DNA of 64,000 nt from Thermodesulfobacteriota bacterium (GCA_964291405.2 OZ219926.1:2848001-2912000); one strand, 5' to 3'; counted from the stretch's first letter, positions 1-39,669 are shown. The notes: a model not told the origin generated them from the sequence alone. Program-made: numbers and translations.

Positions 1-96
1 AGACGTGATGAGCGCCGCTGTCGCGCCAAGTATGGCGAGCTGTGGGAACGCTACACGCAGCAGGTGCGTTATTCGATGCTGCCGTTTGTTTATTGA
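1..96 (+). CDS. C-terminal end of an ERG4/ERG24/DHCR7-family sterol reductase (gene begins left of the window)
   Basis: Frame 1 reads RRDERRCRAKYGELWERYTQQVRYSMLPFVY*, matching the family C-terminal motif RDExxCxxKYGxxWxxYxxxVxYxxxPxxY; 8 nt upstream of CYP51; not in the ORF track. Confidence 0.85.
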   Translation, partial: RRDERRCRAKYGELWERYTQQVRYSMLPFVY

Positions 97-104
97 AGGC
101 AGGG

Positions 105-1514
105 ATGGCACAACAGTCTCACAATCTGGCAACCCGGCGTTCGGTGCAGCTCTCGCCAGCGGCGGCAAAAGCCGTTCCCGAGCTCGCGGGTGGGTGGCCG
201 TTAATTGGTCATCTGCTGGATTTTCAAAAGGATCCGGTCTCGATGTTGAGCCGCGGTTGGCGCGAGCGGGGCGAACTCGTCCGGTTCCGGCTCGGTCCCC
301 GCGAGTTTGTTCTCTTCACCGGACCCGAAGCCCACGACGTGTACTTCAGCGCGCCCGAGGATCAGCTGAACGCCAAAGCCGTCTATCAGTTCACGGTCCC
401 CATCTTCGGCCGCGGCGTGGCGTACGACGCCGCCCCCGAGCTCATGGACGAGCAACTCGGATTCCTGTTTCCGGCGCTTCGCGAAGCCGCGATGCGCCGG
501 TTTGCCCGCGTCATGTTCGAGGAGACCAGCCAGTTCGCCGACACGCTCGGCGAGGACGGGGAAGTCGATCTGCCGCTCGCGCTGAACGAGCTGACCGTCA
601 AGATCGCCAGTCGTTGCCTCATTGGAGAGGAAGTTCGGGAGCAGGTGGACGCGGGTTTTGCCGAGGCGTATCACGATCTGCAAAAAGGCATCAACACCCT
701 GGGATTTTTTCTCCCCAGACTTCCCACCCCAGCGCATCGAAGCCGCGACCGGGCCCGGCGACAAGTGGCCGCGCTCTTTAGCCGGATCATGACGGCCCGC
801 CGGCTTTCCGGGGCCCGGCCCGACGATTTCATGCAGACACTCATGCACGCCCGTTACAGGGATGGCCGCGTCTTGGACGACGACGAGATTACCGGAATCC
901 TGTTGACGGTGTTGTTCGCGGGCCAGCACACCAGCGCGGTGCTCGCAACCTGGACCGGTCTGGAGCTCCTGAGGACGCCATCATACCTGACGCGGGTAAG
1001 AGACGAGATACAAGACGTCTACCGCGAGGCAGGAGCCATGAGCCTGGCGAGTCTCAAACGACAAGAGGCGCTGGAACACGCCGTACGTGAGTGCGAGCGG
1101 CTGCACCCGCCATTGATAATGCTGATCCGCAAGGTCCTCAAACCCGTGCGTTACCGAGACTATATCGTGCCGGCCGACACCCTGGCCATGGTGTCGCCGG
1201 CGGTCTCTCACCGGTTGCCCCACGTGTTTGCCAACCCGGAGCGGTTTGCTCCGGACCGCTTTGCTGCCCCCGCTTGCGAGGACAAACAACACCAGTACGC
1301 CTTGATCGGTTTTGGCGGCGGCAAACACCGCTGCATGGGGAAACATTTTGCGTACCTGCAGCTGAAAGCGATCTGGACCGTGCTGCTCGATCGCTTCGAT
1401 TTTCATCTCGACACCGCGTTTCCCGCCCCGAATTACGGGAGCTGGGTGACGGGCCCCGAGACACCCTGCCGGCTCCGCTACCGCCGCCGCTCGCAAGGGA
1501 GCCTTGTCCGATGA
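105..1514 (+). CDS. cyp51: Sterol 14-alpha-demethylase (CYP51)
   Basis: CYP51 signatures YQFTVPIFGRGVAYD and I-helix AGQHTS; ExxR; heme motif FGGGKHRCMG; ATG at 105 preferred over 42. Confidence 0.9.
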   Translation: MAQQSHNLATRRSVQLSPAAAKAVPELAGGWPLIGHLLDFQKDPVSMLSRGWRERGELVRFRLGPREFVLFTGPEAHDVYFSAPEDQLNAKAVYQFTVPIFGRGVAYDAAPELMDEQLGFLFPALREAAMRRFARVMFEETSQFADTLGEDGEVDLPLALNELTVKIASRCLIGEEVREQVDAGFAEAYHDLQKGINTLGFFLPRLPTPAHRSRDRARRQVAALFSRIMTARRLSGARPDDFMQTLMHARYRDGRVLDDDEITGILLTVLFAGQHTSAVLATWTGLELLRTPSYLTRVRDEIQDVYREAGAMSLASLKRQEALEHAVRECERLHPPLIMLIRKVLKPVRYRDYIVPADTLAMVSPAVSHRLPHVFANPERFAPDRFAAPACEDKQHQYALIGFGGGKHRCMGKHFAYLQLKAIWTVLLDRFDFHLDTAFPAPNYGSWVTGPETPCRLRYRRRSQGSLVR

Positions 1515-4500
1515 GCGGCACCACGCTTCGGCCCTACGACGTCGCCATCGTCGGTGCGGGTCCGGTCGGTAGCGTGTGCGCGCTCGCTCACGCGCGCAAA
1601 GGTGCCCGGGTGGCTCTGCTCGAAGCAAATCCCAAAGCGTCCAGACGACTGGCGGGCGAATGGCTGCATCCGCCTGCTGTACAGATGTTACGTGATGTTG
1701 GAGTAGAGCTCGATACGCAGCCCCGCAGCGCCGCGGGTAAAGGATTTGTGGTGTTCCCGGAAGACGGCTCAGAGCCGATAGTGCTGCCTTATCCGGACGG
1801 AGTCCAGGGTTTGGTATGCGAGCATGCAGCACTCGTCTCGCGGCTGCGTGAAGCTATCGAAAACGAATCGGGTGTCGACTGTATGCTCCACGCGCGGGTC
1901 CGTGCGGTCGAAGACGGGCGGGTCACTTTTGCCCGGAACGGCGCCGATGAATCCGTGACCGCGGCACGGATTGTCGGTGCCGACGGCCGGGCCTCAATCG
2001 TGCGTCAGTCGCTGGGTTTATCGACACGCCCGATGACCTGCTCGCGGATGGTAGGGGTCATACTAAGGGGGGTGAGTTTACCGCTAGAGGGGTATGGGCA
2101 TGTGCTGTGTGGTGGACCGGGTCCAGTGCTCATATACCGTCTGGGAGAGCATTACGTCCGGGTCATCGTCGATGTCCCAATGGCCGGCTGGACCCCCGGG
2201 GACCGGATTGGCTTCCTGTCGGATGCGTATGCCGGTGTGTTGCCGGAAACAATGAGACCTGCGTTTATCGAAGCGCTGCGGGGGGGACAATTCAGCGTCG
2301 CGGTCAATAATTTGAGCCTGCGCGTCACATACGGGAGTCCACATCGAGTGCTTATTGGCGATGCGGCCGGGCACTACCATCCCCTGACGGCGGTGGGAAT
2401 GACCCTCGGTTTCGGCGATGCGCTTACGCTGGCCGAGGGCGAGAACTTTCACGACTTCACCGCTAAGCGTTTGCAGGCGACCCGCGCTCCGGAGTTCCTC
2501 GCCATGGGGTTCTACGAGGTCTTTGCCGATCATCGGGCCGAGGTGGTGGCGATCAGACACGCGGTCTACCGGCGTTGGCGGGCAAAATCCACGGTTCGCG
2601 ACCGGACCATGCGTTTACTCGCCTGTGAAGACACCTCGGCGGCCCATCTGGGTCGCGAGTTTGGCGTGACGATGGCCCGGGCGGTTGCCGGGGAGATGCC
2701 GCGATCCTCCGACCAGCTCGCTTGGCGCCGAGCCCGCGACATCGTTTATGCGACCGCTGTGCGCCTCTGGTGGCTCCTGCGTGGCCTTCGGCAGTTACAC
2801 AAGGCGAGAAGCGCGGGCGGAGAAAAAGACGGGCGATTTCGGGACACCTTGGCCCTCGCGTTTCCGGTCTCTATGCCATCGAGAGTGAGTGACCCCCAGC
2901 CCAGCCGCCCGAGGGAGGTTGCGTCACCCGAGGCCGGTCCGGCCTTGCGGCGGGCGAGCGCGCGCTTGTTACATCTCCAGGATGAGGAGGGCGGCTGGGA
3001 AGGTGAGATGGTTTGGTGTCCCATGCTGACCGCGCAATATGTGCTGTTGCACCACATTCTGGAGCGGCCGCTCGAGCCCGGCCGGCGTCGGCGTGTGCTG
3101 CGCTCCTTCGAACGGACCCGTCTCGAAGGGGGCTTATGGGGTTTACACGAGCACGCACCACCCTCCCTGTTTGTCACCACCCTGGTGTACGTCGCGACGA
3201 GATTACTCGGTATCGAGCGGGATGATCCGTTCATCGAGCCGGCCCGGCGATTCCTGCAAGCAGAGGGGGTTCTCGGTATCCCGAGCTGGGGAAAGTTCTG
3301 GCTGGCGCTCCTCAACCTCTACGACTGGCGCGGGGTAAACGCCATCCTACCGGAGCTGTGGAGCTTACCGCGCTGGATCGCGTTACATCCCTCGAACTGG
3401 TACTGCCATACTCGGCTCATCTACATGGCGATGGCGGCGATTTATCCGCATCGGTTCCAGGCCCCCGTCCCGCCCTCGATCGCGTCGCTGCGAGAGGAGC
3501 TATTCCCCCAGGGCTTTGCCAACGTCGATTTTTCCGCCGGCCGCAATCGCTTGCGAGATGCCGACCTCTACGCGCGACCCAGTGTGTGGCTCCGAGCCGG
3601 ATATGAGTGTGCGCGGTTAGTCGAACGGTTCCACGCCAAACGTCTGCGCACCCGATGTATGGAAGCGATCATCCGGCACATCAAATGGGAGTTGCAAACC
3701 ACCAACCATACGAGCATCTCTCCGGTCAGCGGTCTTCTCAACATCCTGGCCTTGTGGCTGCGCGATCCTCACGACACCGATGCCGCCCAGGCGCTCGCGA
3801 AGCTGGATGACTGGATCTGGGAAGACGAGGAGGGTGGAGCGCGCGTTACCGGAGCGAGAAGTACCTCGTGGGATACCGGATTCTCTCTGCAAGCGCTGGC
3901 GACAGTGCCCGAGCTTGACGGGGTTCAAAGCGCCCTCCAACGCGGCGCCGACTTCCTGCGCCGGCAACAAATCGGCACCAGTTTCGCAGGATTCCGCGAG
4001 GCATATCGGATCGACCCCAAAGGCGGCTGGTGTTTTGCCGGGGGATGGCATGGCTGGCCGGTGACGGACTGTACCGCGGAAGCGGTGCTCGGGCTTATCG
4101 CCGCCGACCGCGAGGCCACGAGCCCGGCAGCGCTCGGCGAAGCGATTCGGTTCATGTTGCGTGGTCAGAACCGCGATGGCGGTTTTGGCAGCTATGAGGC
4201 ACAGCGCTCCGTGGTTGGCCTCGAGTGGCTGAATCCGGCCGAGATGTTTGGCGACTCGATGACCGAGCATTCCTATGTCGAGTGCACCGCGTCCTGCCTC
4301 GCGGCGCTCGCCGCCTGTCAGGAGCACTTCCCGCAAATCACGAATGGGGCGGTGAGGCGCGCCATCGCACGGGCTGACACTTGGCTGCGCCGGACCCAGG
4401 CGAGCGATGGGTCGTGGCGCGGCGTGTGGGGCGTGCAGTTCATCTATGGCACTTTCTTCGGGGTCAGGGGGCTGCTTGCTGCCGGGGCTCGTCCCGGCGA

Positions 4501-4912
4501 CCCGGCGCTACGTCTGGCCTGCCGGTGGCTGCTGGACCGCCAGCATGAAGACGGGGGATGGGGTGAGCATCACAGCGGTTGCCTGACCGGCCGCTATGTC
4601 GCACATGAGGAAAGTCAGGTCATCCAAACCGCGTGGGCAATGATCGCGCTCCTCGAGGCAGACGATGCGGACTGGACCGCGATTGCGCGGGGTGCCCGGT
4701 TCTTGCTCAGCACCCAGGAGGCGGATGGGACATGGCCCAAGCAAGACATGGCCGGGGTCTTTTTTCGTACGGCGCTACTGGACTATGTCCTATATCGACA
4801 GTATTTTCCCCTGCACGCGCTCAGTCTCTACGAGCAGCGACGCCAAGCCCGGCTGGATCCGACGTCCCCCGTTCCACTTACCGCCGACGCGACTGGCTGG
4901 AGATGTTCTTAA
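1511..4912 (+). CDS. Squalene epoxidase - oxidosqualene cyclase fusion protein
   Basis: N-terminal GAGPVG FAD motif, RLAGEWLHP and GDAAGHYHPLTAVGMT (epoxidase-like); C-terminal QW repeats and catalytic DCTAE; ATG at 1511 overlaps the CYP51 stop (ATGA). Confidence 0.9.
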   Translation: MSGTTLRPYDVAIVGAGPVGSVCALAHARKGARVALLEANPKASRRLAGEWLHPPAVQMLRDVGVELDTQPRSAAGKGFVVFPEDGSEPIVLPYPDGVQGLVCEHAALVSRLREAIENESGVDCMLHARVRAVEDGRVTFARNGADESVTAARIVGADGRASIVRQSLGLSTRPMTCSRMVGVILRGVSLPLEGYGHVLCGGPGPVLIYRLGEHYVRVIVDVPMAGWTPGDRIGFLSDAYAGVLPETMRPAFIEALRGGQFSVAVNNLSLRVTYGSPHRVLIGDAAGHYHPLTAVGMTLGFGDALTLAEGENFHDFTAKRLQATRAPEFLAMGFYEVFADHRAEVVAIRHAVYRRWRAKSTVRDRTMRLLACEDTSAAHLGREFGVTMARAVAGEMPRSSDQLAWRRARDIVYATAVRLWWLLRGLRQLHKARSAGGEKDGRFRDTLALAFPVSMPSRVSDPQPSRPREVASPEAGPALRRASARLLHLQDEEGGWEGEMVWCPMLTAQYVLLHHILERPLEPGRRRRVLRSFERTRLEGGLWGLHEHAPPSLFVTTLVYVATRLLGIERDDPFIEPARRFLQAEGVLGIPSWGKFWLALLNLYDWRGVNAILPELWSLPRWIALHPSNWYCHTRLIYMAMAAIYPHRFQAPVPPSIASLREELFPQGFANVDFSAGRNRLRDADLYARPSVWLRAGYECARLVERFHAKRLRTRCMEAIIRHIKWELQTTNHTSISPVSGLLNILALWLRDPHDTDAAQALAKLDDWIWEDEEGGARVTGARSTSWDTGFSLQALATVPELDGVQSALQRGADFLRRQQIGTSFAGFREAYRIDPKGGWCFAGGWHGWPVTDCTAEAVLGLIAADREATSPAALGEAIRFMLRGQNRDGGFGSYEAQRSVVGLEWLNPAEMFGDSMTEHSYVECTASCLAALAACQEHFPQITNGAVRRAIARADTWLRRTQASDGSWRGVWGVQFIYGTFFGVRGLLAAGARPGDPALRLACRWLLDRQHEDGGWGEHHSGCLTGRYVAHEESQVIQTAWAMIALLEADDADWTAIARGARFLLSTQEADGTWPKQDMAGVFFRTALLDYVLYRQYFPLHALSLYEQRRQARLDPTSPVPLTADATGWRCS

Positions 4913-5643
4913 TGGAATTTGAATCCGATGCGGCGCACGACAGCACAGGAGGCAAATTGGAATCGACCATGCGGGTAGCGGTATTGACTGGATTGGTGAT
5001 TGCCGTAACCACGGCAGCCTCTATCGGCTTCGGCTATGCCGTGCACGGCAATCTGAACGCTTACTACGGCCTGCTGAGCCTGTTTTTCTGCATCAACCTG
5101 CCGATCTGCTACTGGGAGATCTGCCTGTTCCTGCGACGCGACGCCGTCGAGCGACGTGCGGACTACTGGCGCGCCAGACGAAGAAAGACTGGTCGAACGC
5201 CGGCCGTTGAGTTTCTGTTGAGTGAGATTCCGCTGAGCAAGGCATTGTCCCCGATCGTCTGGGCGGACGTGTGGGCCACCTATAGCATGTACGACGGATC
5301 CTATGCCGACCGACGCACGTTCGGCTTCAACGCAGATATCGCCAACGGCTTTTTCACGCCAATCCCGGCCCTGGTTCTGCACGCGACCTTTGCGGTCGGT
5401 TTTTTGCCTGCCCTACTGGCGGGCATCCTGGGTGTGATGCTGTTTTGGCAGTGGACCTACGTCACGTCGGTTTACTTGGTGAGCTTTTTCGTAGCCAGGC
5501 GGCATAAGCAAATCGCGCGGGGCGATCTGTGGCTCTACATCTGGAGTACGAACTCGCCGTGGGTGCTCTTCGCGCTTCTGGGGCTCTATGTTTCCGTTCG
5601 ACTGATTGTCGATGGCGATTACGAGGTTCTGGGCCACCGGTAA
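4912..5643 (+). CDS. EXPERA/EBP-like membrane protein, putative sterol delta8-delta7 isomerase
   Basis: Multi-TM protein with WATYSMYDGSY (WxxYxxxDxxY) and NSPW motifs; TAATG coupling to the cyclase stop. Confidence 0.6.
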   Translation: MEFESDAAHDSTGGKLESTMRVAVLTGLVIAVTTAASIGFGYAVHGNLNAYYGLLSLFFCINLPICYWEICLFLRRDAVERRADYWRARRRKTGRTPAVEFLLSEIPLSKALSPIVWADVWATYSMYDGSYADRRTFGFNADIANGFFTPIPALVLHATFAVGFLPALLAGILGVMLFWQWTYVTSVYLVSFFVARRHKQIARGDLWLYIWSTNSPWVLFALLGLYVSVRLIVDGDYEVLGHR

Positions 5644-5782
5644 CGTCCCGTTAGGCCACGCTCATTGCCTTCCTGCTCCCGACCCCGCGCGTGCGGCCCG
5701 AAAAAGCCGCAGTCCTCGGCGGATGCTTACGATGGGAATGGGCGACCTCGTGGAGGAACTCGGGGTCGAAAACCTACTTCGT

Positions 5783-6814
5783 TCAGTCTCCCGAGCGCCG
5801 GGGTTTACGGGCCAGGAAGAAATACATCGGTGTAAAAATACCGGACTCGCCACCGTCGACCAAGGCGTCCGCCGCCCTGTTTAACAGCGTGCTGACCGAG
5901 GCGGCGCCCTCCGGAAACACCCGCAACTTCTCGCCAACCCTCAACACCAGATTGGTCAAGGCGCGGCCAACGGGTGTGCGCGGAATACTCTTGAGACTGA
6001 GGTCGCGACCCTGCAAGGCGCGGTACCAGGGCGTTTCCGGATGCGATTCGGGGGCAAGGTCGTGGGATTCCAGGAGTTCGAATCCGGCCCCGCGCAATGC
6101 GGTGCATATCTCCGACGAGAAGGCGATATCCGGTAGTGCATCCCCCGCCATGATATCTTCCTTGATCCGCAGGTGCTCTGCGTTCCTCGGATCGAATTTC
6201 TCCGTGAGACACCAGTCGTAGCCCGCGAAACAAGCCCCCGGACGCAGGACGCGGAAGATCTCCCGGAACGCGGCAGTCTTGTCCGGTGCGTGGGGCATGG
6301 ACTCGATGGCAATGGCGGCATCGTAGTGGTCGTCACCTTCGGGAACGTGCATGTAGTCGCCGTGGATGAAACGGCACAACGACTGGACATCTCGGGTGTG
6401 CACTTTCGCGCGCTCGATCTGATAGGCGTTAGTGTTGATCCCGACGAAGCTGGCCCCGGAATAGCGGGCCAGATTGCCCATGGGCCCGCCTACCCCGCAC
6501 CCCGCATCGAGCACTTGCATCTCCGGTCCCAGGGACAGCCGATCGGCGAGAAAACGCTGGTGCCTGAGCAGCGACGCCTTGAAGCTCTCGCTCCGGCGCC
6601 GGGGAGCAAAGTGCCAGGACTGACCCCAGCCGAACTCGTAGAAATCGGTCACCAAGTCGTAGTAGTGATTGACGAGCAACTGATACCGCTCTTTTCTCCG
6701 CTCCGAGCCAGCATCGTGGAGCCCGGTGTATTGATCGACCACGGATTTCACTTCATCCGGGGCGAGATTCGCGAGGGAACGAGAGCTCGATCGTTTGGCG
6801 GGCGTACGGGTCAT
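5783..6814 (-). CDS. Sterol 24-C-methyltransferase (SMT/Erg6-like)
   Basis: YYDLVTDFYEFGWGQSWHFA (region I), LDAGCGVGGP (SAM binding), IESMPHAP (region III), YDW, C-terminal GIFTPMYFFLARKP. Confidence 0.9.
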   Translation of the reverse strand: MTRTPAKRSSSRSLANLAPDEVKSVVDQYTGLHDAGSERRKERYQLLVNHYYDLVTDFYEFGWGQSWHFAPRRRSESFKASLLRHQRFLADRLSLGPEMQVLDAGCGVGGPMGNLARYSGASFVGINTNAYQIERAKVHTRDVQSLCRFIHGDYMHVPEGDDHYDAAIAIESMPHAPDKTAAFREIFRVLRPGACFAGYDWCLTEKFDPRNAEHLRIKEDIMAGDALPDIAFSSEICTALRGAGFELLESHDLAPESHPETPWYRALQGRDLSLKSIPRTPVGRALTNLVLRVGEKLRVFPEGAASVSTLLNRAADALVDGGESGIFTPMYFFLARKPRRSGD

Positions 6815-6818
6815 TCGA

Positions 6819-7907
6819 TCATTCTCCGCTCTCCGTCCCGCGCGTCAAATACTCCCGCCACTTCCGCACCGTCACTTTTTGAAAAGCCCGGACCACCGGA
6901 TTGAGCTCGATAGGAGGGGCGTCCCAATGTCTCTCGTACCCCTGCTGCTCCGCTTCGACCGCAAATCGATCCTGGGCGAGTAAAGGGCCGATGAGCAGAC
7001 GGTTCGCGATCTTCAAAACCGTGGTCATGGCGAAACGGGGAATACGTACCGGCAGCAAAGGTATCTTCAGCGACTTGAAGTAGAACAGGAAGAACGTCCG
7101 GGTGGTCCGCTCATCGATTGGCAGCACAAAAAGCCAGTGTTTTATCTCGTCATCGGTGTTCGACCACTGATAGGGGTATTGAAAGCACAGCTCTATGTGA
7201 TTGGTGTCGAGCCGGTTGTGATCGACAAACAGCCCGGAGATACGCCCGCGTCCGACCCGCGTATCGTAGGCGAGGTGCACGTTGTCACCGACAGTCTCGC
7301 AACGGGTGAGGGTGGCGCCTTCGAAGGGACGGTATCGACGGTGCAGATGGGCGTGGGAGAAGTCGCTCACGTTGTCGATCACCATCGAGTGGTGGGCCGA
7401 CCAGGTGAAGCTGAGCGGGACACAGGCCCACCGCGCGGGTCCTTCGAGCTCGGGGATGTCCGGGATCTGGCGCCGCTGTGCCTGCTCCGGTTTCCCAGGG
7501 AACAACCAGATCAGACCGTAACGGACCGTCACGGGATAGGTCCTCAGCGAGACCTTCGGGAGACCTCGTCCGAAGCGGTCGTGGGGGATCTCGGCAAGGC
7601 GCCCGTTTTCATCATACTGCCAGCCATGGTAGGCGCACACGAGCCGGCAGCCTTGCACCTCGCCCAGGGAGAGTTTGAGCTGGCGATGCGCACAGCGATT
7701 CTCGACCGCGTGAAACGAGCCATCTATCCCGCGAAATAACGCAATGGAACGTTTCCAGAAAATGATCTCGACCACTGTGCCCGGTTTGACTCGGTGCGCT
7801 TCTTCAACCGCGTACCAGTAATCCGGGTCCAGACCCGCGGCGCGCGCTTGCTGACGCAAGCTGCCGGCCTCCTCGAAGCCGGAGGGCGCACTCGGTGCCG
7901 GGCTCAT
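6819..7907 (-). CDS. Rieske non-heme iron oxygenase, SdmA-like (candidate sterol C-4 methyl oxidase)
   Basis: CAHR...CAYHG Rieske motif, DNVSDFSHAHLH iron site; coupled to an SDR gene inside the sterol cluster. Confidence 0.7.
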   Translation of the reverse strand: MSPAPSAPSGFEEAGSLRQQARAAGLDPDYWYAVEEAHRVKPGTVVEIIFWKRSIALFRGIDGSFHAVENRCAHRQLKLSLGEVQGCRLVCAYHGWQYDENGRLAEIPHDRFGRGLPKVSLRTYPVTVRYGLIWLFPGKPEQAQRRQIPDIPELEGPARWACVPLSFTWSAHHSMVIDNVSDFSHAHLHRRYRPFEGATLTRCETVGDNVHLAYDTRVGRGRISGLFVDHNRLDTNHIELCFQYPYQWSNTDDEIKHWLFVLPIDERTTRTFFLFYFKSLKIPLLPVRIPRFAMTTVLKIANRLLIGPLLAQDRFAVEAEQQGYERHWDAPPIELNPVVRAFQKVTVRKWREYLTRGTESGE

Positions 7908-9049
7908 TTCGGACCCCCAACGGAAGGCATCTGTATGCCTTGGCTCGGTATGAGGTTTTCCACTTGTTCCGTGGCGTTCACGCGCGGGCGTTTCGCGAGC
8001 GGATTCGTGATCGCGTTGCGGTGGTAGTGAAAGGCGTAGGCCTCATGAACCGCAGCCTGGATACTGGTTGGCTGATAGCCGAGCTCCCGTCTCGCTTTGC
8101 CGGTGTCGGCGTGACGGCGCTTTTGTAACAGGCGGATGGCGCCAGGGGTAAAACGCTGGGGAAAGCTCGGATGAAACCGGCTCAGATAAAAGCTCGCCGC
8201 TTCCGAAAAGACGAGCATCAGGCGGGTCGGGATTCGCCGGTGCGGTCGCGGCACGCCTGAGACCTCCTCGAACAGATCCAAGATGTCCGAGATGGTCTTG
8301 TACTCGCTGCTAAAGATGTACTTTTCGCCCGAGCGTCCTCGGTGCATGCACAACAGATGTCCTTCGACAATGTCCCGTGCCGCGACAAACTCGAAACCGC
8401 CATCAACGTACGCATAGAGCTTGCCGTTCGTGTAATCGCATAAGGTCCTGCCCAACCGCGAGGGGAAAAAATCGCTGCCCCCGACCACCGCACAACACGT
8501 TGCGACCACAACATCTTGTCCCGCCGCCGCGGCGCGCCAGCACTCGTGCTCGACGAGTGCCTTGCTACGCTCGTAGGGCATCGTGCGTTCCATGGGATAG
8601 AACTGCATCGTCTCGTCGCTGGGCGCGGACGGATCATCCAAATCATAACCGACCGCACTGAAAGAGCCCGTCACCACCACCCGGCCGGCCCCCGCCTCCC
8701 GCGCCGCTTGCAGCACGTTGCGGGTACCGAGAACGTTGCACTCGAATACTTCCCGGCGATGAGCGCGGTTGCCTTCGATGGTTGAAACCTTGGCCGCGCA
8801 GTGATAGACGCCTTGACAGCCCGTGAGCGCATGCCTGGCGGCATTCAAATCTCGGATGTCACCAAACGCGCGTTCAACCTCGAGGCCTTCCAGTGCTTCG
8901 TTGTTGTCCTCGTGTCTCAGCAACACCCGGACTCGAACGCCGTCGTCGAGCAGTCGGCGCACGAGATTGGCGCCCACATGCCCGGCCGCGCCGGTGACGA
9001 GAACGGGTGGCGTCGATGAGCCAGCAGATGTGCTTGATCGTGAGGTCAT
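7904..9049 (-). CDS. NAD-dependent epimerase/3beta-HSD-like SDR, SdmB-like (candidate C-4 decarboxylase/reductase)
   Basis: TGAAGHVG Rossmann motif, YERSK catalytic motif; 4-nt overlap with the Rieske gene; start could be 9049 or 9100. Confidence 0.7.
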   Translation of the reverse strand: MTSRSSTSAGSSTPPVLVTGAAGHVGANLVRRLLDDGVRVRVLLRHEDNNEALEGLEVERAFGDIRDLNAARHALTGCQGVYHCAAKVSTIEGNRAHRREVFECNVLGTRNVLQAAREAGAGRVVVTGSFSAVGYDLDDPSAPSDETMQFYPMERTMPYERSKALVEHECWRAAAAGQDVVVATCCAVVGGSDFFPSRLGRTLCDYTNGKLYAYVDGGFEFVAARDIVEGHLLCMHRGRSGEKYIFSSEYKTISDILDLFEEVSGVPRPHRRIPTRLMLVFSEAASFYLSRFHPSFPQRFTPGAIRLLQKRRHADTGKARRELGYQPTSIQAAVHEAYAFHYHRNAITNPLAKRPRVNATEQVENLIPSQGIQMPSVGGPK

Positions 9050-9239
9050 CTCGTCTAGTGTACTGCTTCCAAAGATACCGCCTCCTTGAGGCCGGGTCAA
9101 TACGTGGGTAAACGGGGTAGTAGGTCAAGTTTGCGATGTAAGTTATTGTTTCTACTGGCTAAAAAATTTCAAAGCATGTAGCCAACGGGCGAGGAACGCG
9201 CTATCTTTCTCCCATGCGATACGACTGGAGAAAAGAATA

Positions 9240-10606
9240 GTGCCGCGGCGCATAGCCATTGTCGGCGGCGGCATATCAGGGCTGGCGGCCGCGTGGGCGC
9301 TGGATCACGACCCGGACCGATTCGATTTTCGGCTGTTTGAGGCGCAGGACCGGATTGGCGGAAACGCGATCACTGCCGATATGCCGCAGGATGACGGCAG
9401 CTTCATTCCTTTCGATATTTCCGTCACCGCTTGCATTTCGTCGGGGTACCACCACATCCTGCTGTTGATGAAAAAGTTCGGCATCGAACTGCTCGATACC
9501 AGATTCAGCTACAGTGTGAAGTACCGTGGCGGCGTGTACGCCCACGATTTCGACTCCGACATCCGAGAGCAACTGCAATCCGAAATTGCGAAGTTTCAAC
9601 GAATCCTGAGGCGTCTGAAGTGGTTCGGTTGGCTGAGCCGGTCCCAATCGAAGTTTCTGAACGCCCTCAATCCGTTCAACTACATCAGCATGGGGACGGT
9701 CCTGAATCTGGCCGGTTTCTCCGGGGACTTCCGGTACAAGATACTGAAGCCCATGTTCGTCAACTTCCTGATGGCGACCAATGTGTTCGATATGCCTGCA
9801 TCTCTCTTTACGCGGTATCTCGAATTCTTTGATATCGAAAGCGCCACGCCCATGCAGACGTGGGACCGGGGAACACGACGTATCTACGAAAACCTGTCGG
9901 CCAATTTCCGGGACAAGATATGCCTCAACCGGCCTGTCCGAAAGGTGTATCGCCAGTCGTCCGGCATCGTGGTCGAGGACGAGGACGGTGTACAGGAGAC
10001 GTTCGACGAGGTGATCTTCGCCTGCAATGCGAACCAGACGCTGATGATCCTCGACAACCCCACGATGCTGGAGCGCTATATTCTCTCGTCGATCCGGTAC
10101 GAGAGCGAACTGCACAACCATACGGTCGTGCATTCGGACGCCTCAGTCCTTCCGGACAACGCAGTGCAGCCCCTGAAAACGCGGAGCAATCATATCGAGC
10201 AATACGGCGCCCGACCGGACAATTATGAAATCACCTACATCATGCACAACCAGCAGCCGTGGGCCAATCGGTCTGACAAGCCTTGTCTGGTAACCTACAA
10301 CCCCATCAGCGAAATCGATGGGAAGAAGATTATCGGAAAGTGGTGGTTCCAGCACATTGTGCATGACGTGCGCCACGTCGCCCTGCTCGTTCCTTTGTTC
10401 CGCTTCATTCAGGGCAAGAAAGGCAAACCTGGCACTGTGGCGCCCATACGCTGATCAACAGCCAGGAAACCTGCTTTGTCAGCGGGCTCGCCGCTGCAAC
10501 ACAGATCGGTGTGGATTATCCCTTCGACGATCCCGGGGCGCGGCGGGCGTTCAACCATTACGGGAGTATCATGTATGGTCGGGGGTTCAGGAAGGCGAAG
10601 GGCTGA
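9240..10606 (+). pseudogene. FAD-dependent oxidoreductase (COG2907-like), frameshifted near 10420 (real lesion or assembly error)
   Basis: GGGISG...FEAQDRIGGNA N-terminus; after QGK the C-terminus RQTWHCGAHTLINSQETCFVSGLAAA...RKAKG* continues in another frame to TGA at 10604-10606. Confidence 0.75.
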
Positions 10607-10642
10607 AGACCGGTACGACCGCATCCGCCACAGGATCACGGC

Positions 10643-11722
10643 TCACGGATGGGTGGATTTGACCTTGCCCGATTCCAGCCTTTCCGGCTGAAGCTCCGGA
10701 TAGAACTGCCGACAATAGCGACGGTATTTCCCTATGGGGCCGTCCGTCTGGCACAGCCGCGGGGAAGACCGATGCCGCTTCCGGTCCCAGATCACCACGT
10801 CCTGCAGCACCTCCCGTTTTTGCCATGAAAGCAGAATGTGTTTCATCAGCCTTTGGCGCAACTTCATCGGTACGAAACCCAGACCCGAGATGAACCGTCG
10901 GGGCTTGCGGATTTCCCGCAGTTGGCCGACCAGCACAAGATCGATGAGGGTGCCATCGATGGGTGTGGGAAGTACCCACAATCTCGCATCCATATCGATG
11001 GTTTTCTCGTGGATTTCGACGAAGGAGTAGCCCAGTCCATAGATGTGAGTGACGGCCGAGACGTCATACACGAGGTCTTTTACACCCAGGAGCCTGTGAA
11101 CGCTTTTGAAGTCGAAGCAACTCTTCAGGTAGGCGCCGTCCACTGTTACCGAACCGACCGGACTCACATTGTCGTAGCCGTGTACGTGGCCCAGGTGTCC
11201 GAGGTCCACGGAATTCTCCGCTGTTTCCTGGGGATGGCCGCGGAATCGGAGGGTCCGGAATCCCAACTCGCTCCACTCCGCACCGGTGGGTGGGTCACCT
11301 GGAAGGTCCCAATGCGGAGGCCGGCCGCCGCTCCCGAACCAGGCGAAGACCAGACCGAGGATTTCTCTGGTCTGGTATACCTTCAGTTTCGCGGCTCTGG
11401 GTGCCGGGGCGTTCGGAGTCGCAACGCATTGGCCGGTCGTATCGTACTCAAACCCGTGAAACGGACAGACGAGGCGACCGTTGCATACCTGGCCGCCAGC
11501 CTCCGGCCCCAGGTACGAGCCCAGGTGCGGACAGACCGCGTCGGCCACGCAGACACGGCCATCCTCGTCGCACCAGGCGACGATTTCCTCGCCCAGCCAC
11601 GTCTTCTCGATCAGTTTCTCTCGCAGAATGGACTCGCGGCTTGCGACGAAATACCACCCCTCAGGGAACGCTGGTAGCTCATCCATGCTAGTCATGGACA
11701 GTCTTTTGGTGTTCCTAGTCAT
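10643..11722 (-). CDS. Rieske oxygenase of the Neverland (cholesterol 7-desaturase)/KshA type
   Basis: FPEGWY, CPHLG...CPFHG, ENSVDLGHLGHVHG, QDVVIWDRK, DGPIGKYRRYCRQFY. Confidence 0.75.
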   Translation of the reverse strand: MTRNTKRLSMTSMDELPAFPEGWYFVASRESILREKLIEKTWLGEEIVAWCDEDGRVCVADAVCPHLGSYLGPEAGGQVCNGRLVCPFHGFEYDTTGQCVATPNAPAPRAAKLKVYQTREILGLVFAWFGSGGRPPHWDLPGDPPTGAEWSELGFRTLRFRGHPQETAENSVDLGHLGHVHGYDNVSPVGSVTVDGAYLKSCFDFKSVHRLLGVKDLVYDVSAVTHIYGLGYSFVEIHEKTIDMDARLWVLPTPIDGTLIDLVLVGQLREIRKPRRFISGLGFVPMKLRQRLMKHILLSWQKREVLQDVVIWDRKRHRSSPRLCQTDGPIGKYRRYCRQFYPELQPERLESGKVKSTHP

Positions 11723-11967
11723 GAGTCCAGAGCTCCTTTCAAATTCACAACTCTCTCATCCGCTCCACACCCAACTCCTCCAGGCGCGTCGCCATCGTTT
11801 ACCCAGCGCTGGAAACGACGATGGCAGGTCTGGTAGGAGGATAGGGGTCGGGGAGGTCGTGCCACGGAGCACCTATTCTGAGTATCTACAGTATACCACT
11901 CAGCACCTCCCGGCTCGACCGCTACGGGCGATTATTCACAACGAGAGCGTTCATTCCCGGTAAAGCC

Positions 11968-12450
11968 ATGACGCCAGCCATTCAGGCCCTCAAACATGCT
12001 CGGATTCCCTATCGCCTGTATGAATATCATCACGACCCGGCTGCCTCGTCTTACGGGCTGGAGGCTGCTGAAGCGCTCGGCGTTGACGCGGCTCAGGTCT
12101 TGAAAACGCTCATCGTCAAACCCGCTGCCAGCGCGCTTGTTGCTGCACTGATCCCCGTCTCCACTCAGCTCAACCTCAAGGCGGTCGCCCAGGCAGTTGG
12201 GGTAAAGAAAGCCATCTTAGCCGACCCAAGAGAAGCCGAACGGGCAACCGGCTATGTGGTTGGTGGCATCAGTCCGCTCGGCCAACGCCGTGACCTCGTC
12301 ACGCTGATAGACGAGTCAGCACTCAGCCACGCCAGCGTCTACGTCAGCGCCGGGCGCCGTGGACTCGATATTGCCCTGAGCCCGCAGGATTTGATTCAAC
12401 TGACCCAGGCACGGATCGCCCGTATCGCAGTGTGGCGTGGAGCGGGGTAG
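11968..12450 (+). CDS. ybaK: Cys-tRNA(Pro) deacylase YbaK
   Basis: MTPAI start, KTL, GYVVGGISPLGQ, SAGRRG. Confidence 0.9.
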   Translation: MTPAIQALKHARIPYRLYEYHHDPAASSYGLEAAEALGVDAAQVLKTLIVKPAASALVAALIPVSTQLNLKAVAQAVGVKKAILADPREAERATGYVVGGISPLGQRRDLVTLIDESALSHASVYVSAGRRGLDIALSPQDLIQLTQARIARIAVWRGAG

Positions 12451-12562
12451 AAGCGGTCCAGCATCCTGGGTCCCGGAAAAATCCTTTCCCCCATTTACAT
12501 CTGCTGCCACAGCGCTAGAGTGAGTACAAGAAGACCCACATGTTTCTTCATGGAGGACGCTT

Positions 12563-13984
12563 ATGGCAGATCACGCATTTCCTCCCATGACGAGCGGCGG
12601 CGTTCCCGTTCTGGGACACGCGCTTCAATTCCTACGCGACCCGACGGCCCTCATAGAACGGGGCTATCATGAGCACGGCTCGATTTTCTCCTTCCAACTC
12701 GGGCTGAAACGGGCGGTCGTTCTGGTCGGACCGGAGAACAATCGCTTCTTTTTTAGTGAGACAGACAAATTGCTCTCCATCCGCGAGAGCTATCCCTTCT
12801 TCATCAAGATGTTCCACGAACGCTTCTATGTCTTCGCCGAGTTCGAGGAATACCTGGAACAGCGAGCCATTATCATGCCGCGGTTTCAGCCCCAGCAGAT
12901 GCACCAGTATGTCACCACCATGGCTAACGAAACGTTTGCCCTGATGGAACGTCTGGGCGAGGAGGGGTCCTGTGATCTGATTCCAACCCTGGGTCCACTG
13001 GTGATGCATATTGCCGCGCACGCCTTTCTGGGCGACGATTTTCGACAGCGTCTGGGCAGTCATTTCTTCCAGGACTTCCGCAATTTTTCGGGAGGGATAG
13101 AGCCGCTTCTACCCCTCTGGCTGCCACTGCCTAGACTGATTCGGAGTCAACGGGCCAAAAGAAAATTGCACAAAATCCTGGGCGAACTCATAGAAGAGCG
13201 CCGTCACAGTCCGGTCGACCCGCCGGATTTTTTACAGACGTTGATTGCGTCCCACTACTCTGACGGGAGGCCGATTGACGACGTGTTAATTATTAATCTG
13301 ATCCTCCTGCTGGTATGGGCCGGACACGAGACAACCGCCGGGCATATCAGCTGGGGTCTGATTGACCTGCTCCTCCACCCGACCTATCTCCAGTCTGTGC
13401 GCGACGAACAGGCTGATATTCTTGACAATGGCCGGGATCTCTCGATGACAGAGGTGCGTCAACTGCGACGGATTGAGTGGGCGCTCAAAGAAACCGAGCG
13501 GCTCCATCCGGTCGCCTTTGTCCTCATGCGCAAGGCCGCCGAGACCTTTGCCTGGCAGGGCTTCCGCATTCCTCAGGACGCCATGGTGTTTATTGCCCCG
13601 CTTCTCTCGCATCGGATGCCCGAGATATTCCCGGACCCCGACCAGTATCGTCCGGAACGGTTCTCCCCGGAGCACGATGAGTCTCGTCAGCCCCATAGCC
13701 TGATTGGGTTTGGAGGGGGCGTGCACCGTTGCGCTGGGGTTCATTTTGCCTATCTTGAGATGAAAATCGTCCTCTCCCTCCTCCTCCAGCAGTATGAATT
13801 CACCCTGCTTGACCCCGAGCCCAAACCGGTCAGCGGAACAAAAACGAAATGGCCGTCCAGTCCGTGTCGGGTCCAATACCGGCGACGGGCTGACATGCCA
13901 CCCAAGGTGCCGCGTCATTTGCCTCCCGTTGGGGAAGCCCACCCCGTCGGCCCACCGGCAGCGCACTGTCCGGTTCCGCACTAA
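12563..13984 (+). CDS. Cytochrome P450, divergent CYP51-like
   Basis: AGHETT I-helix, KETERLHP, FGGGVHRCAG; clearly similar to the CYP51 at 105 but lacks the canonical B' signature; GGAGG RBS. Confidence 0.85.
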   Translation: MADHAFPPMTSGGVPVLGHALQFLRDPTALIERGYHEHGSIFSFQLGLKRAVVLVGPENNRFFFSETDKLLSIRESYPFFIKMFHERFYVFAEFEEYLEQRAIIMPRFQPQQMHQYVTTMANETFALMERLGEEGSCDLIPTLGPLVMHIAAHAFLGDDFRQRLGSHFFQDFRNFSGGIEPLLPLWLPLPRLIRSQRAKRKLHKILGELIEERRHSPVDPPDFLQTLIASHYSDGRPIDDVLIINLILLLVWAGHETTAGHISWGLIDLLLHPTYLQSVRDEQADILDNGRDLSMTEVRQLRRIEWALKETERLHPVAFVLMRKAAETFAWQGFRIPQDAMVFIAPLLSHRMPEIFPDPDQYRPERFSPEHDESRQPHSLIGFGGGVHRCAGVHFAYLEMKIVLSLLLQQYEFTLLDPEPKPVSGTKTKWPSSPCRVQYRRRADMPPKVPRHLPPVGEAHPVGPPAAHCPVPH

Positions 13985-14063
13985 GCGTTTTCGTGCTTAG
14001 CTAGGGATTCCGCCATCCGCTGCATGATAAGGATGGGTGTGTGCGAAGCACGGGAGGAGACGT

Positions 14064-15215
14064 ATGAGCATCAAAGGAAAAGCGGCAATCTCCGGGTTTG
14101 CCGAAATGCCGCCCCAAAAAGGCGCCGGGAATATTACGCCGCTGGGGATTATTGCCAATGTGGCGCGTGAGGCAATCGCCGATGCCGGTCTGGAAAAGAG
14201 CGATATTGATGGGCTGCTGACCGGCTGGGCGCTGAGCGACTATAGCGTGCTGTGGCCTTCGGTGGTGGCCGACTACCTGCAAATCCGCCCCACCTATTTT
14301 AATCAGGTCGAGCTGGGCGGCGCCTCTGCCGCCGGTATGGTCTGGCGGGCAGCGGCCGCCATTGAAGCCGGGATGTGCAACTCCGTGCTGTGCGTCGTGG
14401 GTGACCGGCGGGCCCGGGCGCGACAGATGCCGCCCTTCCCGAGCATTGAGGCGGAATTCGATGCACCCTACGGCCTGATTGCCGCCAACCCCGGCTATGC
14501 GCTCATCGCCCAACGCCATAAATATGAATACGACACCACCGCGGAACAAATGGCCAAGGTTGCGGTAGACCAACGCAAGAGCGCCTGCCAAAACCCGAGC
14601 GCCTTATTCGGGAACAAAGAAATCGACATTGATGACGTGCTGAACTCCCGCATGATTGTTGACCCCCTACACCTGCTTGAGATCGTCAGTCCGTGTACCG
14701 GGGGCGGCGCGTTTATTGTCACCAGTACCGAACGCGCCAAAGACGGCCCTCACAAGCCCGTAGTCTTGCTCGGAGCGGGTGAGGCCGGCGGCCATTCGAG
14801 CATTACCCATGCGCGCAGCCTGACGACGTCGTTAGTCAAACCGGCTGCGGAATCTGCCTTTCACATGGCCGGAGTCACACCGCAGGATATGGACTTTGTG
14901 CAACCCTACGACTGCTACACCATCACCGTGATCGTGACTCTTGAAGACGCCGGCTTTTGTGAAAAAGGCGAGGGGGGTCGGTTTGTTGAAGACCACGACC
15001 TGTCATACGCGGGCGACTTTCCGTGCAATACCCACGGCGGCCAACTGTCTTTTGGGCAACCGGGGCTCGCCGGTGGTATGAGCCATGTTATTGAGGGCGC
15101 ACGGCAGCTCATGGGACGCGGGGAAGGGCGGCAGGTCAAAGATGCCTCTATCGGCTATGTGAACGGTAACGGTGGAATCATGGCCGAGCAGTGCAGCCTC
15201 GTCTTGGGTGTGTAG
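14064..15215 (+). CDS. SCP-x/Ltp2-type thiolase-like protein
   Basis: GGASA, YDCYT, NTHGGQLS motifs; GGAGGAG RBS before ATG 14064. Confidence 0.85.
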   Translation: MSIKGKAAISGFAEMPPQKGAGNITPLGIIANVAREAIADAGLEKSDIDGLLTGWALSDYSVLWPSVVADYLQIRPTYFNQVELGGASAAGMVWRAAAAIEAGMCNSVLCVVGDRRARARQMPPFPSIEAEFDAPYGLIAANPGYALIAQRHKYEYDTTAEQMAKVAVDQRKSACQNPSALFGNKEIDIDDVLNSRMIVDPLHLLEIVSPCTGGGAFIVTSTERAKDGPHKPVVLLGAGEAGGHSSITHARSLTTSLVKPAAESAFHMAGVTPQDMDFVQPYDCYTITVIVTLEDAGFCEKGEGGRFVEDHDLSYAGDFPCNTHGGQLSFGQPGLAGGMSHVIEGARQLMGRGEGRQVKDASIGYVNGNGGIMAEQCSLVLGV

Positions 15216-15233
15216 CGGACGGAAAGGAAAACC

Positions 15234-15641
15234 ATGGGCGAGTATAACAAACCCCTCCCTCATCCCAATGAGATCTCTCAGCCCTTTTGGGATGCGGCCA
15301 AACGGCACGAACTCCAGATCCAACGCTGCAATGCGTGTGGGACTCATATCTTTTACCCGCGCGAAGCCTGCTCGGAATGCTTGGCCGCCGACCTCGTCTG
15401 GATTCCCGTATCCGGCAAGGGCAAGCTGTATTCCTACACCATTGCCCAGGCTCCGACGCACCCGGCCTTTGCCGATGATGTGCCCTACGTTATTGCCATT
15501 GTTGAGCTCGCAGAAGGTCCGCATATCACCACCAATCTGGTCGGCTGCCAGCCCGACCAGGTGACTATAGGCATGCCGGTTTTGGCATCCTTTGAGGATG
15601 TGAGTGAGGAAATGACCCTGGTCAAGTTCCGGCCCGAATAG
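15234..15641 (+). CDS. Zn-ribbon/OB-fold DUF35 protein (thiolase partner)
   Basis: PFWDAA...QRCNACG...PREACSEC, ELAEGP. Confidence 0.85.
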   Translation: MGEYNKPLPHPNEISQPFWDAAKRHELQIQRCNACGTHIFYPREACSECLAADLVWIPVSGKGKLYSYTIAQAPTHPAFADDVPYVIAIVELAEGPHITTNLVGCQPDQVTIGMPVLASFEDVSEEMTLVKFRPE

Positions 15642-15832: not shown

Positions 15833-16627
15833 TTATAGCTCTTCAAGGGCATCCTTTTCTATCCATCCGCGCCGCCCATCGCAGCGGGCGACCTGCCACC
15901 AGCCTTCTCGGACATCGAGCAGTCGGACCCGCGTGCCCTGGGGGACGGAGAAATGGACCGTGCCGCTCGGAGCCGGCTCAAAACGCACTGGAGTATCCTC
16001 TTGTTTGAGTACCACAGCGTGTCGCTGCCAATCGCTCGTCCGTAGCTGCTGTACCAGCGAGAGCGTTATTACCACCAGGCAGGCAGTGACCCCCCAGCCC
16101 ACGGAGAGGAGCCATTGGGGCTGCCGCGGCCACAGACGGTACACGGCAAAAACCCCGAAGAGCAATGTATAGGCCGCACTAGTGAGCCACACCAATTGGT
16201 CTGTCGCGACTCGATGGGCAAGCGGAAAGACAAGGCGTTGCCAGAGGGGCGGCTGGCAGACTTCAGCGTCCGTGAGTGAGTGGGCGAAGCGCAGGTTGGC
16301 TTCCAGGTCCGGGTCACTGGGGAGGAAGCGCCGTGCCCGCTCGTAATTCAGAATGGCCTTTCCCACTCGTCCTGCCTTGAAATAGGCGTTGCCGAGGTTG
16401 AAATAGAGATTGCCGCTGACGAAGCCGGACTGAAGCACGGCTTCGTAGGCCTCCACTGCCTCGGCGTACTGACCTTGCGTGTAGAGCGTATTCGCATGAA
16501 AAAAAGCGGTCTGAGGGGTTGTTGGCGCCGCGGCTGCCAGGGAGGGCGCCCAGCAGAGACAGACACCGCAAAGAGTAAATCGCAAGCCTCGAAATGGCCG
16601 AAGTCGGAGAAATTGCGGCAGCCTCAT
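15833..16627 (-). CDS. batE: BatE-like TPR + SH3 protein
   Basis: YFNLGNAYFK...AILNYERA TPR, TM segments, C-terminal SH3b. Confidence 0.8.
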   Translation of the reverse strand: MRLPQFLRLRPFRGLRFTLCGVCLCWAPSLAAAAPTTPQTAFFHANTLYTQGQYAEAVEAYEAVLQSGFVSGNLYFNLGNAYFKAGRVGKAILNYERARRFLPSDPDLEANLRFAHSLTDAEVCQPPLWQRLVFPLAHRVATDQLVWLTSAAYTLLFGVFAVYRLWPRQPQWLLSVGWGVTACLVVITLSLVQQLRTSDWQRHAVVLKQEDTPVRFEPAPSGTVHFSVPQGTRVRLLDVREGWWQVARCDGRRGWIEKDALEEL

Positions 16628-18534: not shown

Positions 18535-18543
18535 TCTTCTTCC

Positions 18544-39596: not shown

Positions 39597-39669
<73 letters not shown>

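Follow-up and report, generated by a model that had tools for sequence, protein, structure and literature searches.

A mobile genomic island that probably encodes de novo synthesis of 24-methylated sterols in a sponge-associated, Binatia-related bacterium

We analysed a stretch of 64,000 nucleotides from a Thermodesulfobacteriota bacterium (GCA_964291405.2, OZ219926.1:2848001-2912000), hereafter the window, which is part of a 4.9-Mb contig in a genome of 4.95 Mb that is 97.5% complete. Its left end holds a set of sterol-type genes, and an earlier reading of the window alone (the original prediction) had taken positions 1-15641 as a near-complete cluster for the synthesis of C-24-alkylated sterols. 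Genes were located from a list of open reading frames (ORFs) together with Pfam and NCBIfam scans. Every gene of the original prediction was recovered in this way, and the translational couplings that it had pointed out are all real: the CYP51 stop overlaps the start of the epoxidase-cyclase fusion (ATGA, 1511-1514), the fusion stop overlaps the start of the next gene (TAATG, 4910-4914), and the adjacent Rieske and short-chain dehydrogenase/reductase (SDR) genes share 4 bp (7904-7907). The unit itself had to be redrawn: its genes are present, but its right end lies at ~11,962 and its left end 11.6 kb beyond the window. A leftward continuation had been anticipated, and the full reductase gene, two GPP34-P450 fusions and an efflux system of the resistance-nodulation-division (RND) type were found there. 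The features of the island and its two edges are given below, with L001 coordinates for those that lie left of the window.

L001:8332-8381 (window -11668 to -11619): left copy of a direct repeat of ~50 bp
L001:8507-14614 (window -11493 to -5386), left of the GPP34-P450 genes: OMF-MFP-AcrB-type RND efflux system
L001:14730-16754 and L001:16430-18982, left of the reductase: two GPP34-P450 fusions, GPP34 domain N-terminal and P450 domain C-terminal
1..96, plus strand: 3' end of a predicted delta14-sterol reductase (ERG4/ERG24), last 31 codons of 363 aa
105..1514, plus strand: CYP51, predicted sterol 14alpha-demethylase, 469 aa, PF00067
1511..4912, plus strand: squalene epoxidase-oxidosqualene cyclase fusion, 1133 aa
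4912..5643, plus strand: five-helix membrane protein with the EBP fold (EXPERA superfamily), 243 aa
5783..6814, minus strand: predicted sterol C-24 methyltransferase (SMT), 343 aa, Sterol_MT_C 77.9 bits
6819..7907, minus strand: SdmA-like Rieske oxygenase, Rieske and VanA_C domains, putatively for C-4 methyl oxidation
7904..9100, minus strand: SdmB-like NAD(P)-dependent SDR, Epimerase and 3Beta_HSD matches, putatively for C-4 decarboxylation and 3-keto reduction
9240..10454, plus strand: flavoprotein of the amine-oxidase family, 404 aa, accessory module
10643..11722, minus strand: KshA-like Rieske oxygenase, Rieske and KshA_C domains, 359 aa
11961..12010: right copy of the imperfect direct repeat of ~50 bp, covering the first ybaK codons

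The fusion protein gave 931 matches, the best 120 of which are all fused, 1107-1168 aa long and 72-89% identical to it, and its relatives are encoded in 463 stretches of DNA (one genome per species). We kept 80 related loci for locus comparison, over which the fusion protein is 68-94% identical, and sought homologues of the other genes by tblastn; contig ends cut 23 of the 80 loci, so that all gene counts over them are lower bounds. The best stretches bear the title 'Candidatus Binatia bacterium' (94% and 89%), and the others are metagenome-assembled genomes (MAGs) of sponge symbionts from the Nitrospirales, Alpha- and Gammaproteobacteria, Rhodothermales, Bryobacterales, Opitutales and others. 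The core arrangement recurs over these loci and is therefore not a product of chance. Four public sequencing runs were also compared with the region. Two of them, X3 and X18, are labelled 'sponge metagenome'; X18 is an RNA library, whose contigs match the region with 0-23 differences per piece, although as contigs they do not by themselves show transcription, and gaps in their cover carry no information.

The reductase, CYP51 and fusion genes form a block of 5,908 bp on one strand (window -995 to 4912). The reductase gene starts at L001:19005, 995 bp left of the window; it matches PF01222 with 234 bits, comes closest among solved structures to the delta14-sterol reductase 4quv (E 1.9e-65), and has a homologue in 73 of the 80 loci. 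For the P450, 55 of the 60 PDB entries among the matches listed are CYP51 enzymes, the best among them being 7jj1 (E 1.4e-103, residues 23-463) with 6mcw at ~1e-103, and homologues were found in 74/80 loci. What we take to be the CYP51 signatures, YxxF..PxFG..V.YD and AGQHTS, are visible in the PDB alignment of this protein. The fusion combines a squalene epoxidase (SE) domain with FAD-binding signature (residues 9-383) and a cyclase domain (480-1108): the epoxidase half matches human squalene monooxygenase 6c6n (E 1.7e-22), and the cyclase half matches human lanosterol synthase 1w6k (E 1.8e-133) and scores 726 bits against TIGR03463, under its cut-off of 851 bits. The catalytic Asp lies within a DCTAE motif and is kept in 80 of 81 family members. 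At the positions equivalent to human 381, 449 and 453, all 81 members carry A, H and V. In bacterial oxidosqualene cyclases (OSCs), V453 goes with lanosterol and I453 with cycloartenol, and position 453 alone tracks the product in the account of Wei (2016). By this bacterial rule, V453 makes the enzyme a lanosterol synthase, and the cyclase half is thus of the predicted lanosterol type.

As the original prediction had remarked, the window holds no squalene synthase; two SQS_PSY genes and a squalene-hopene cyclase gene lie elsewhere in the genome, one of the SQS_PSY genes being HpnD-like and situated beside dxr, the other squalene-synthase-like. The cell thus probably makes hopanoids besides sterols. 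The sites of these genes and of the two named next are C3:3660252-3661145, C3:4369458, C3:4658570, C3:4683538 and C3:362444. A second ERG4/ERG24 reductase gene is found outside the island, ~25 kb from the squalene-synthase-like gene, and one FA_hydroxylase gene (ERG3/ERG25-type) is present elsewhere in the genome.

Between the fusion and the SMT lies a gene whose product has no NCBIfam match and no Pfam match, PF05241 included (E <= 1). Its family comprises 270 representative clusters, and 8 of 55 members match PF05241 weakly (best E 0.0029). The AlphaFold model (pLDDT 94.6) has human EBP as its top Foldseek match, with probability 1.00 and TM-scores of 0.57/0.64. Because the Foldseek E-value was just 0.033, we also used VIA-align, which gave Z-scores of 16.3 and 15.8 to EBP; the sigma-2 receptor followed with 11.1 and the next unrelated chain with 6.5. 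The EBP-like assignment made earlier was thus borne out at the level of predicted structure. Compared with human EBP (PDB 8w0r, 6oht), the protein shares the fold (root-mean-square deviation of 2.8 A over 183 residues) and a place among sterol-pathway genes, but the two are only 14% identical and the bacterial protein lacks a Pfam match. Near-invariant residues of the family are E69, D128, N214 and W217, and an EBP-like gene is present in 30/80 loci. The model thus points to a candidate sterol delta8-delta7 isomerase. A search for ERG2_Sigma1R gave no match in the genome, and none in the controls either, so that this negative carries no weight. The origin of EBP has been placed within the eukaryotes (Hoshino & Gaucher 2021), and a literature search at the level of titles turned up no case of a bacterial sterol isomerase of the EXPERA type.

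The SMT gene is single-copy in the genome and has homologues in 66/80 loci. Since no solved ERG6-type SMT was among the PDB matches listed, residues were numbered by motif offsets together with G225 (Ap_sym) of the preprint cited below, without direct alignment to yeast ERG6. Numbered in this way, the protein carries the Region II motif DxGxGxxGP, E195 and G217, and its Region I reads YEFGWGQSWHF, giving Y81, F83 and W89; among 75 sequences, position 89 is F in 67, W in 4 and L in 4. Residue 225, mapped to yeast 249, is D; among the same 75 sequences this position is D in 35, N in 30 and G in 4. Gly at yeast 249 is reported to be necessary, though not sufficient, for the formation of 24-isopropyl sterols (Brown & Welander 2025 preprint). 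With D at this position and W at 89, the SMT is therefore predicted to be non-propylating, with 24-methyl and perhaps 24-ethyl products but not 24-isopropyl ones. In vitro methylation of sterols by homologous SMTs from symbionts has been demonstrated (Brown 2023, PMC10070321). Copy number of the gene differs within the genus: island copies in congeners hold tandem SMTs, two in G033 (C3:3813653-3814926) and three to four in G044 (C5:748501-751614), and the window has one.

The Rieske-SDR pair resembles the bacterial C-4 demethylation enzymes. By far the best NCBIfam match of the Rieske protein is NF052579, the 4beta-methylsterol monooxygenase SdmA (E 6e-123), and that of the SDR is NF052578, SdmB (E 4e-92); homologues occur in 74 and 73 of the 80 loci, respectively. 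Both genes lie downstream on the minus strand here, as in four Binatia loci (L004, L005, L006 and L019), whereas in most of the other related loci they are on the plus strand, upstream.

We delimited the island by comparison with congener G047 (60 kb compared). Relative to this genome the locus carries an insertion of 23,581 bp, from window position -11619 to 11962: the two end points are adjacent in G047 and synteny resumes on both sides. G047, whose genome is 96% complete and consists of one contig, gave no match to the fusion or to CYP51 (E <= 1e-60). The insertion is flanked by the two imperfect repeat copies, which are identical at 43 of 50 bases and correspond to the start of ybaK. In five congeners (L089-L092 and L095), one of which is G033, the site is contiguous and the repeat segment is present once. 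G033 nevertheless carries the island, 91-96% identical, at ~410 kb from its own ybaK-P450 locus, where the ybaK site is empty. Searches for the fusion gene were positive in 2 of 18 other genomes of the genus and in none of 12 more distant relatives. The GC content of the island is 60.6%, against 57.8% for the genome, which is the 97.6th percentile of equal-sized windows. No integrase was found among the long ORFs of the island that were scanned, small ORFs being outside the scan. The right junction at 11962 is bridged by contigs of two runs, X2 (836 bp, 4 differences) and X18 (225 bp, 0 differences). All together, its boundaries and patchy distribution indicate that the region is a horizontally acquired, evidently mobile island.

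Besides the sterol core, the island holds an accessory set comprising the RND system, the two GPP34-P450s, the flavoprotein and the second Rieske oxygenase. The latter matches the 3-ketosteroid 9alpha-hydroxylase 4qdc (E 7e-23) and occurs in 7/80 core-cluster loci; this relationship makes it a candidate for oxygenation or desaturation of the steroid nucleus. The flavoprotein, with homologues in 25/80 loci, has LkcE (E 1.9e-20) and the putative amine oxidase 2b9w as best solved relatives, falls in generic amine-oxidase clusters only in a protein atlas, and matches HpnE and protoporphyrinogen oxidase weakly, over the FAD-binding N-terminus only. In all four runs, the RNA library included, summed contig depth at 9613-10680, from the 3' portion of the flavoprotein gene through the spacer that follows, is ~10 times that of neighbouring bins (2156-2306 versus ~200 in X1); near-identical copies are probably present in many abundant community members.

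The two GPP34-P450s are 29% identical to each other, and the true start of the one at L001:16430-18982 is probably a Met 176 codons into the ORF. Both keep the heme Cys and the ExxR motif. Their I-helix segments read QALDPI and ASV-YL, versus AGQHTS in CYP51, which suggests atypical oxygen activation or a reaction other than monooxygenation. Both long-form GPP34 genes of this genome are in the island, and its one short form is elsewhere. To place this arrangement in context, we made a census of GPP34 genes in 29 further complete or near-complete fusion-bearing genomes, counting frames of at least 480 aa as long forms. GPP34 genes are present in all 29. Sixteen of the 40 long-form genes, in 13 of the 29 genomes, lie less than 20 kb from the fusion gene, where 0.59 were expected; a binomial figure for this linkage is overstated, because the 29 genomes are interrelated. 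None of the 26 short forms lies within 20 kb of the fusion gene. The linked long forms span Nitrospirales, Binatia, Alphaproteobacteria and two gammaproteobacterial orders. The remaining 24 of the 40 lie away from the core, which argues against strict coupling. Around these 24 genes we took 22 regions of 20 kb, with 20 control regions displaced by 300 kb. A homologue of an accessory gene (RND, second Rieske, flavoprotein or SMT) was found in 15 of the 22 regions, whose contents were as follows; the first four counts overlap, most regions holding several of these genes.

Second (KshA-like) Rieske, 61-66% identity: 12 regions
RND system, 59-78% identity: 11 regions
An SMT: 4 regions
Flavoprotein, 79-81% identity: 2 regions
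Sulfotransferase only, beside a third GPP34-P450 type: 3 regions
None of these genes: 4 regions

Among the 20 controls, a distant RND (25-36%) was found in one and the other accessory genes in none. We had considered the RND pump to be cargo of the Binatia alone, on the basis of homologues of 66-96% identity in three of the 80 core loci, all of them Binatia, one further core locus holding a distant RND (26-32%). This idea was overturned by the presence of the pump together with GPP34-P450 and second Rieske genes at other genomic sites, in 11 of the 22 regions.

The clearest stand-alone case is in G047, where the order is OMF-MFP-RND, P450A, a DUF1295 reductase-like gene, SMT, P450B, flavoprotein and second Rieske. 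P450A and P450B are each 89% identical to their counterparts in the window's island, the flavoprotein 95% and the second Rieske 86%, and the SMT is of another type, 46% identical to that of the window and with G at the 249-equivalent. Given this stand-alone module, the island of the window looks like such a module with the published core nested inside it. The third GPP34-P450 type, which has a canonical I-helix (AGxDT), is encoded directly beside a sulfotransferase gene in G047 (L103:7635-10859), L108, L111 and L112, and the two may form a hydroxylation-sulfation pair.

The genes to the right of the island belong to the chromosomal flank:

11968-12450: YbaK
12563-13984, plus strand: P450, a CYP204 relative
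14037-15641: thiolase-like (SCP-x/Ltp-type) and DUF35/ChsH2 OB-fold genes

Their membership of the cluster, positions 11968-15641 in all, was rejected: the second P450, the thiolase and the DUF35 gene occur in none of the 80 related loci and YbaK in one, and the genes lie on a flank common to congeners that lack the island at this site. The 'second P450' that the original prediction had counted as a cluster gene is thus a flank gene. Its orthologues (87-91%) are present in 7 of 18 same-genus genomes, in six of which the fusion was not found, and it is therefore independent of the island. Against CYP204A3 (PDB 9WAT) the protein scores 552 bits across residues 8-442, and a hand count over the first 102 aligned columns gives 60 identities, above the threshold of at least 40% for membership of the family. 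CYP204A3 is a bacterial steroid side-chain-cleaving P450 (Tian 2025). These relationships suggest that the P450, thiolase and DUF35 genes serve steroid side-chain processing by symbionts, possibly of host steroids. Further to the right, 15833-22520 on the minus strand is a BatA-BatD aerotolerance-like operon (TPR/SH3, BatD, TPR and two VWA/BatA genes) that has no connection to the sterol genes, and a single tRNA gene at 39597-39669 is the sole Rfam match in the window at the gathering threshold.

We read the locus as a mobile island, of an already published kind, by which a sponge-associated, Binatia-related bacterium makes 24-methylated sterols de novo, and give this reading a probability of roughly 0.7. 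The pathway logic of the original prediction, namely epoxidation, cyclisation, C-14 demethylation and reduction, C-4 demethylation and C-24 methylation, holds at the level of family assignments. In the route that we infer, with regard to catalytic steps, substrates, step order and product alike, a hopanoid-producing cell would divert squalene into sterols via the island. The SE domain would epoxidise squalene and the fused V453-type OSC domain would cyclise the epoxide to lanosterol; CYP51 would then take off the 14-methyl group, the ERG24-type reductase would saturate the delta14 bond, and the SdmA/SdmB-like pair would strip one or both C-4 methyls. The SMT would methylate C-24, probably to a 24-methyl(ene) and perhaps to a 24-ethyl, but not to a 24-isopropyl side chain, and the EBP-fold protein may move the delta8 bond to delta7. 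The accessory module could add further oxidative tailoring and sterol export. The 'extensively modified 24-alkyl sterols' proposed originally remain a putative product.

Several observations weigh against this reading. The SdmA and SdmB matches, at 410 and 309.5 bits, fall below the equivalog cut-offs of 600 bits. In the cyclase, the eukaryotic lanosterol-synthase residues T381 and C/Q449 are replaced by A381 and H449 in 81/81 members, a combination that is neither the lanosterol nor the cycloartenol pattern, V453 alone being in agreement. The SMT lacks the F of GWGxxFHF, a residue kept by every SMT that the 2025 preprint found functional. None of the island genes could be assigned as a C-5 desaturase, delta7-reductase or delta24-reductase. 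The GPP34-P450s of the island are without the usual I-helix acid-alcohol pair in a five-sequence alignment, and in the assembly both the OMF and the RND gene are broken into two overlapping frames. Moreover, long-form GPP34-P450s occur in 8 of 16 same-genus genomes in which the cyclase was not found; the accessory module is therefore independent of de novo synthesis.

The accessory module invites the view that the island produces not a membrane sterol but an oxidised specialised steroid, perhaps norlanostane-type or polyhydroxylated, that is exported and passed on to the host, with SMT and oxygenases as natural-product tailoring enzymes. The homologous msb cluster has been proposed as a route to sarasinoside aglycones (Mohanty 2020, PMC7074536; Kelly 2022, PMC9531527), the island has a flavoprotein, a tripartite exporter of the RND type and three oxygenases beyond those of the core, and the RND, Rieske and GPP34-P450 genes recur together across phyla. 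We nevertheless consider it unlikely: no glycosyltransferase or sulfotransferase was found among the island ORFs scanned, the exporter genes are frameshifted in this assembly, and the core is reported to be strongly conserved in 10 phyla and in sponge genera of very different chemistry (PMC9531527). Alternatively, the tailoring enzymes, SMT included, might act mainly on sterols of the host sponge, with de novo synthesis being secondary. The G047 module, with its SMT and with neither fusion nor CYP51 found, fits such a role, as do a CYP204 P450 of the side-chain-cleavage type in the flank and the known Chlamydiae SMT that occurs without other sterol genes (Brown 2023, PMC10070321). In the genome of the window, however, the core is complete, intact, translationally coupled and adjacent, and the SMT is of the core-linked type rather than of the G047 type, which makes this alternative rather improbable here.

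It would also be conceivable that the cluster is decaying or silent cargo, with the SMT or other enzymes lacking activity in this strain. The two frameshifted genes, the F-to-W exchange at an SMT position invariant among enzymes found functional and the patchiness of the cluster in the genus (3 of 19 genomes, that of the window included) would agree with decay. The split frames can be either pseudogenes or long-read indel errors, the OMF, MFP and RND genes of G033 being intact (550, 404 and 1058 aa). As the eleven biosynthetic ORFs are all full length with conserved catalytic motifs, the same SMT W is found in three other loci, and low dN/dS values have been published for the core genes (Kelly 2022, PMC9531527), we regard loss of function as very unlikely. 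An assembly chimera or eukaryotic contamination, suggested by the eukaryote-like character of several enzymes, is hardly credible: the genes overlap and are free of introns, the locus sits in a 4.9-Mb contig of a near-complete genome, contigs of X2 and X18 cross the right junction, and the same island recurs in G033. On balance, de novo synthesis of 24-methylated sterols remains the reading that we prefer.

For the accessory genes, we tentatively propose that the GPP34-P450s are steroid-tailoring enzymes, instead of or besides having a role in phagocytosis, and that they belong to a mobile module for oxidation, alkylation and export in which the cyclase is optional; this proposal is less than an even bet. 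The module would consist of OMF-MFP-RND, a KshA-like Rieske and one or two GPP34-P450s, with or without an SMT of the second type and a flavoprotein, and it might act alone on host sterols (G047), elsewhere in a cyclase-bearing genome, or around the core as in the window. The GPP34 domain could serve as a lipid- or membrane-binding anchor of the P450.

Steranes with alkylated side chains serve as fossil evidence of early eukaryotes and sponges, and it therefore matters which bacteria make or remodel such sterols. The locus provides a complete, contiguous and evidently mobile example in the Binatia. Its EBP-fold protein may be the missing delta8-delta7 isomerase, the recurrence of the accessory module links the GPP34-P450 fusions found in sponge symbionts with sterol chemistry, and the G047 module, with an SMT and no cyclase found, would, if the proposal is true, mean that symbionts alkylate host sterols.

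The premise of novelty in the original prediction did not survive comparison with the literature: near-identical clusters of sponge symbionts, the fused epoxidase-cyclase and active bacterial SMTs were in print between 2020 and 2023, and a claim of unexpected bacterial C-24 alkylation is outdated for that reason. The msb locus of a gammaproteobacterial Melophlus symbiont (Mohanty et al. 2020, PMC7074536) likewise has SDR and Rieske genes together with a membrane sterol reductase, CYP51 and an SMT; its epoxidase/cyclase is also bifunctional and carries the lanosterol-type valine, and squalene synthase is encoded elsewhere in the genome. Its description mentions no EBP-fold gene, GPP34-P450, flavoprotein, second Rieske or RND system, and its SDR and Rieske genes are upstream on the same strand, whereas those of the window follow the core and are on the other strand. 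The 'clusters of steroid genes' of Ircinia symbionts were reported from 115 of 537 MAGs in 10 phyla, Binatia included, with evidence of horizontal transfer and an ERG24-CYP51-LSS core of 5,910 +/- 74 bp (Kelly et al. 2022, PMC9531527). The block of the window agrees with this core in gene order and length, and the opposite strand at the 3' end holds an SMT (or FDFT1) in the Ircinia clusters and the SMT in the window, where just the EBP-fold gene separates it from the cyclase. The Ircinia clusters differ in that an SDR ('DFR') and a 'hypothetical' gene (Rieske) are at the 5' end on the same strand, and in that the account given there does not annotate SdmA/SdmB or describe island bounds.

Sponge-metagenome SMT clusters (Brown 2023, PMC10070321; Brown & Welander 2025) also join an SMT with sdmAB, CYP51 and a fused squalene monooxygenase/OSC, and their SMTs share F83 of Region I; the SMT of the window departs from them in having D at the yeast-249 equivalent and W at 89. 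Brown 2023 has seven supplementary files, and the six that were readable contain no mention of EBP, GPP34 or amine oxidase. In Methylococcus capsulatus, too, a lanosterol-type OSC and CYP51 are found with C-4 demethylation by a Rieske-SDR pair, but its CYP51-ferredoxin and NTF2-type 8,14-reductase contrast with the unfused CYP51 and ERG24-type reductase of the window, which adds the SMT, the EBP-fold protein and the epoxidase-cyclase fusion.

GPP34-P450 fusions have been described as GPP34_L proteins 'exclusive to sponge symbionts' (Microbiome 2025, PMC11706023). They have the same two-domain architecture and length (~670 aa) as the two copies in the island of the window, and the rare GPP34-Rieske fusions of that paper echo the Rieske link found here. 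Its authors suggest that the proteins bind PI4P and modulate phagocytosis, and 'sterol' and 'steroid' are absent from the main text; here, in contrast, both copies lie in a sterol island and their relatives stand beside SMT, KshA-like Rieske, flavoprotein and RND genes. A literature search combining GPP34, sponge and sterol gave nothing relevant. Set against these systems, what is new here is the confirmation of an EBP fold, the SMT residues that speak against isopropyl products, the composite nature of the island, and an accessory module that crosses phyla.

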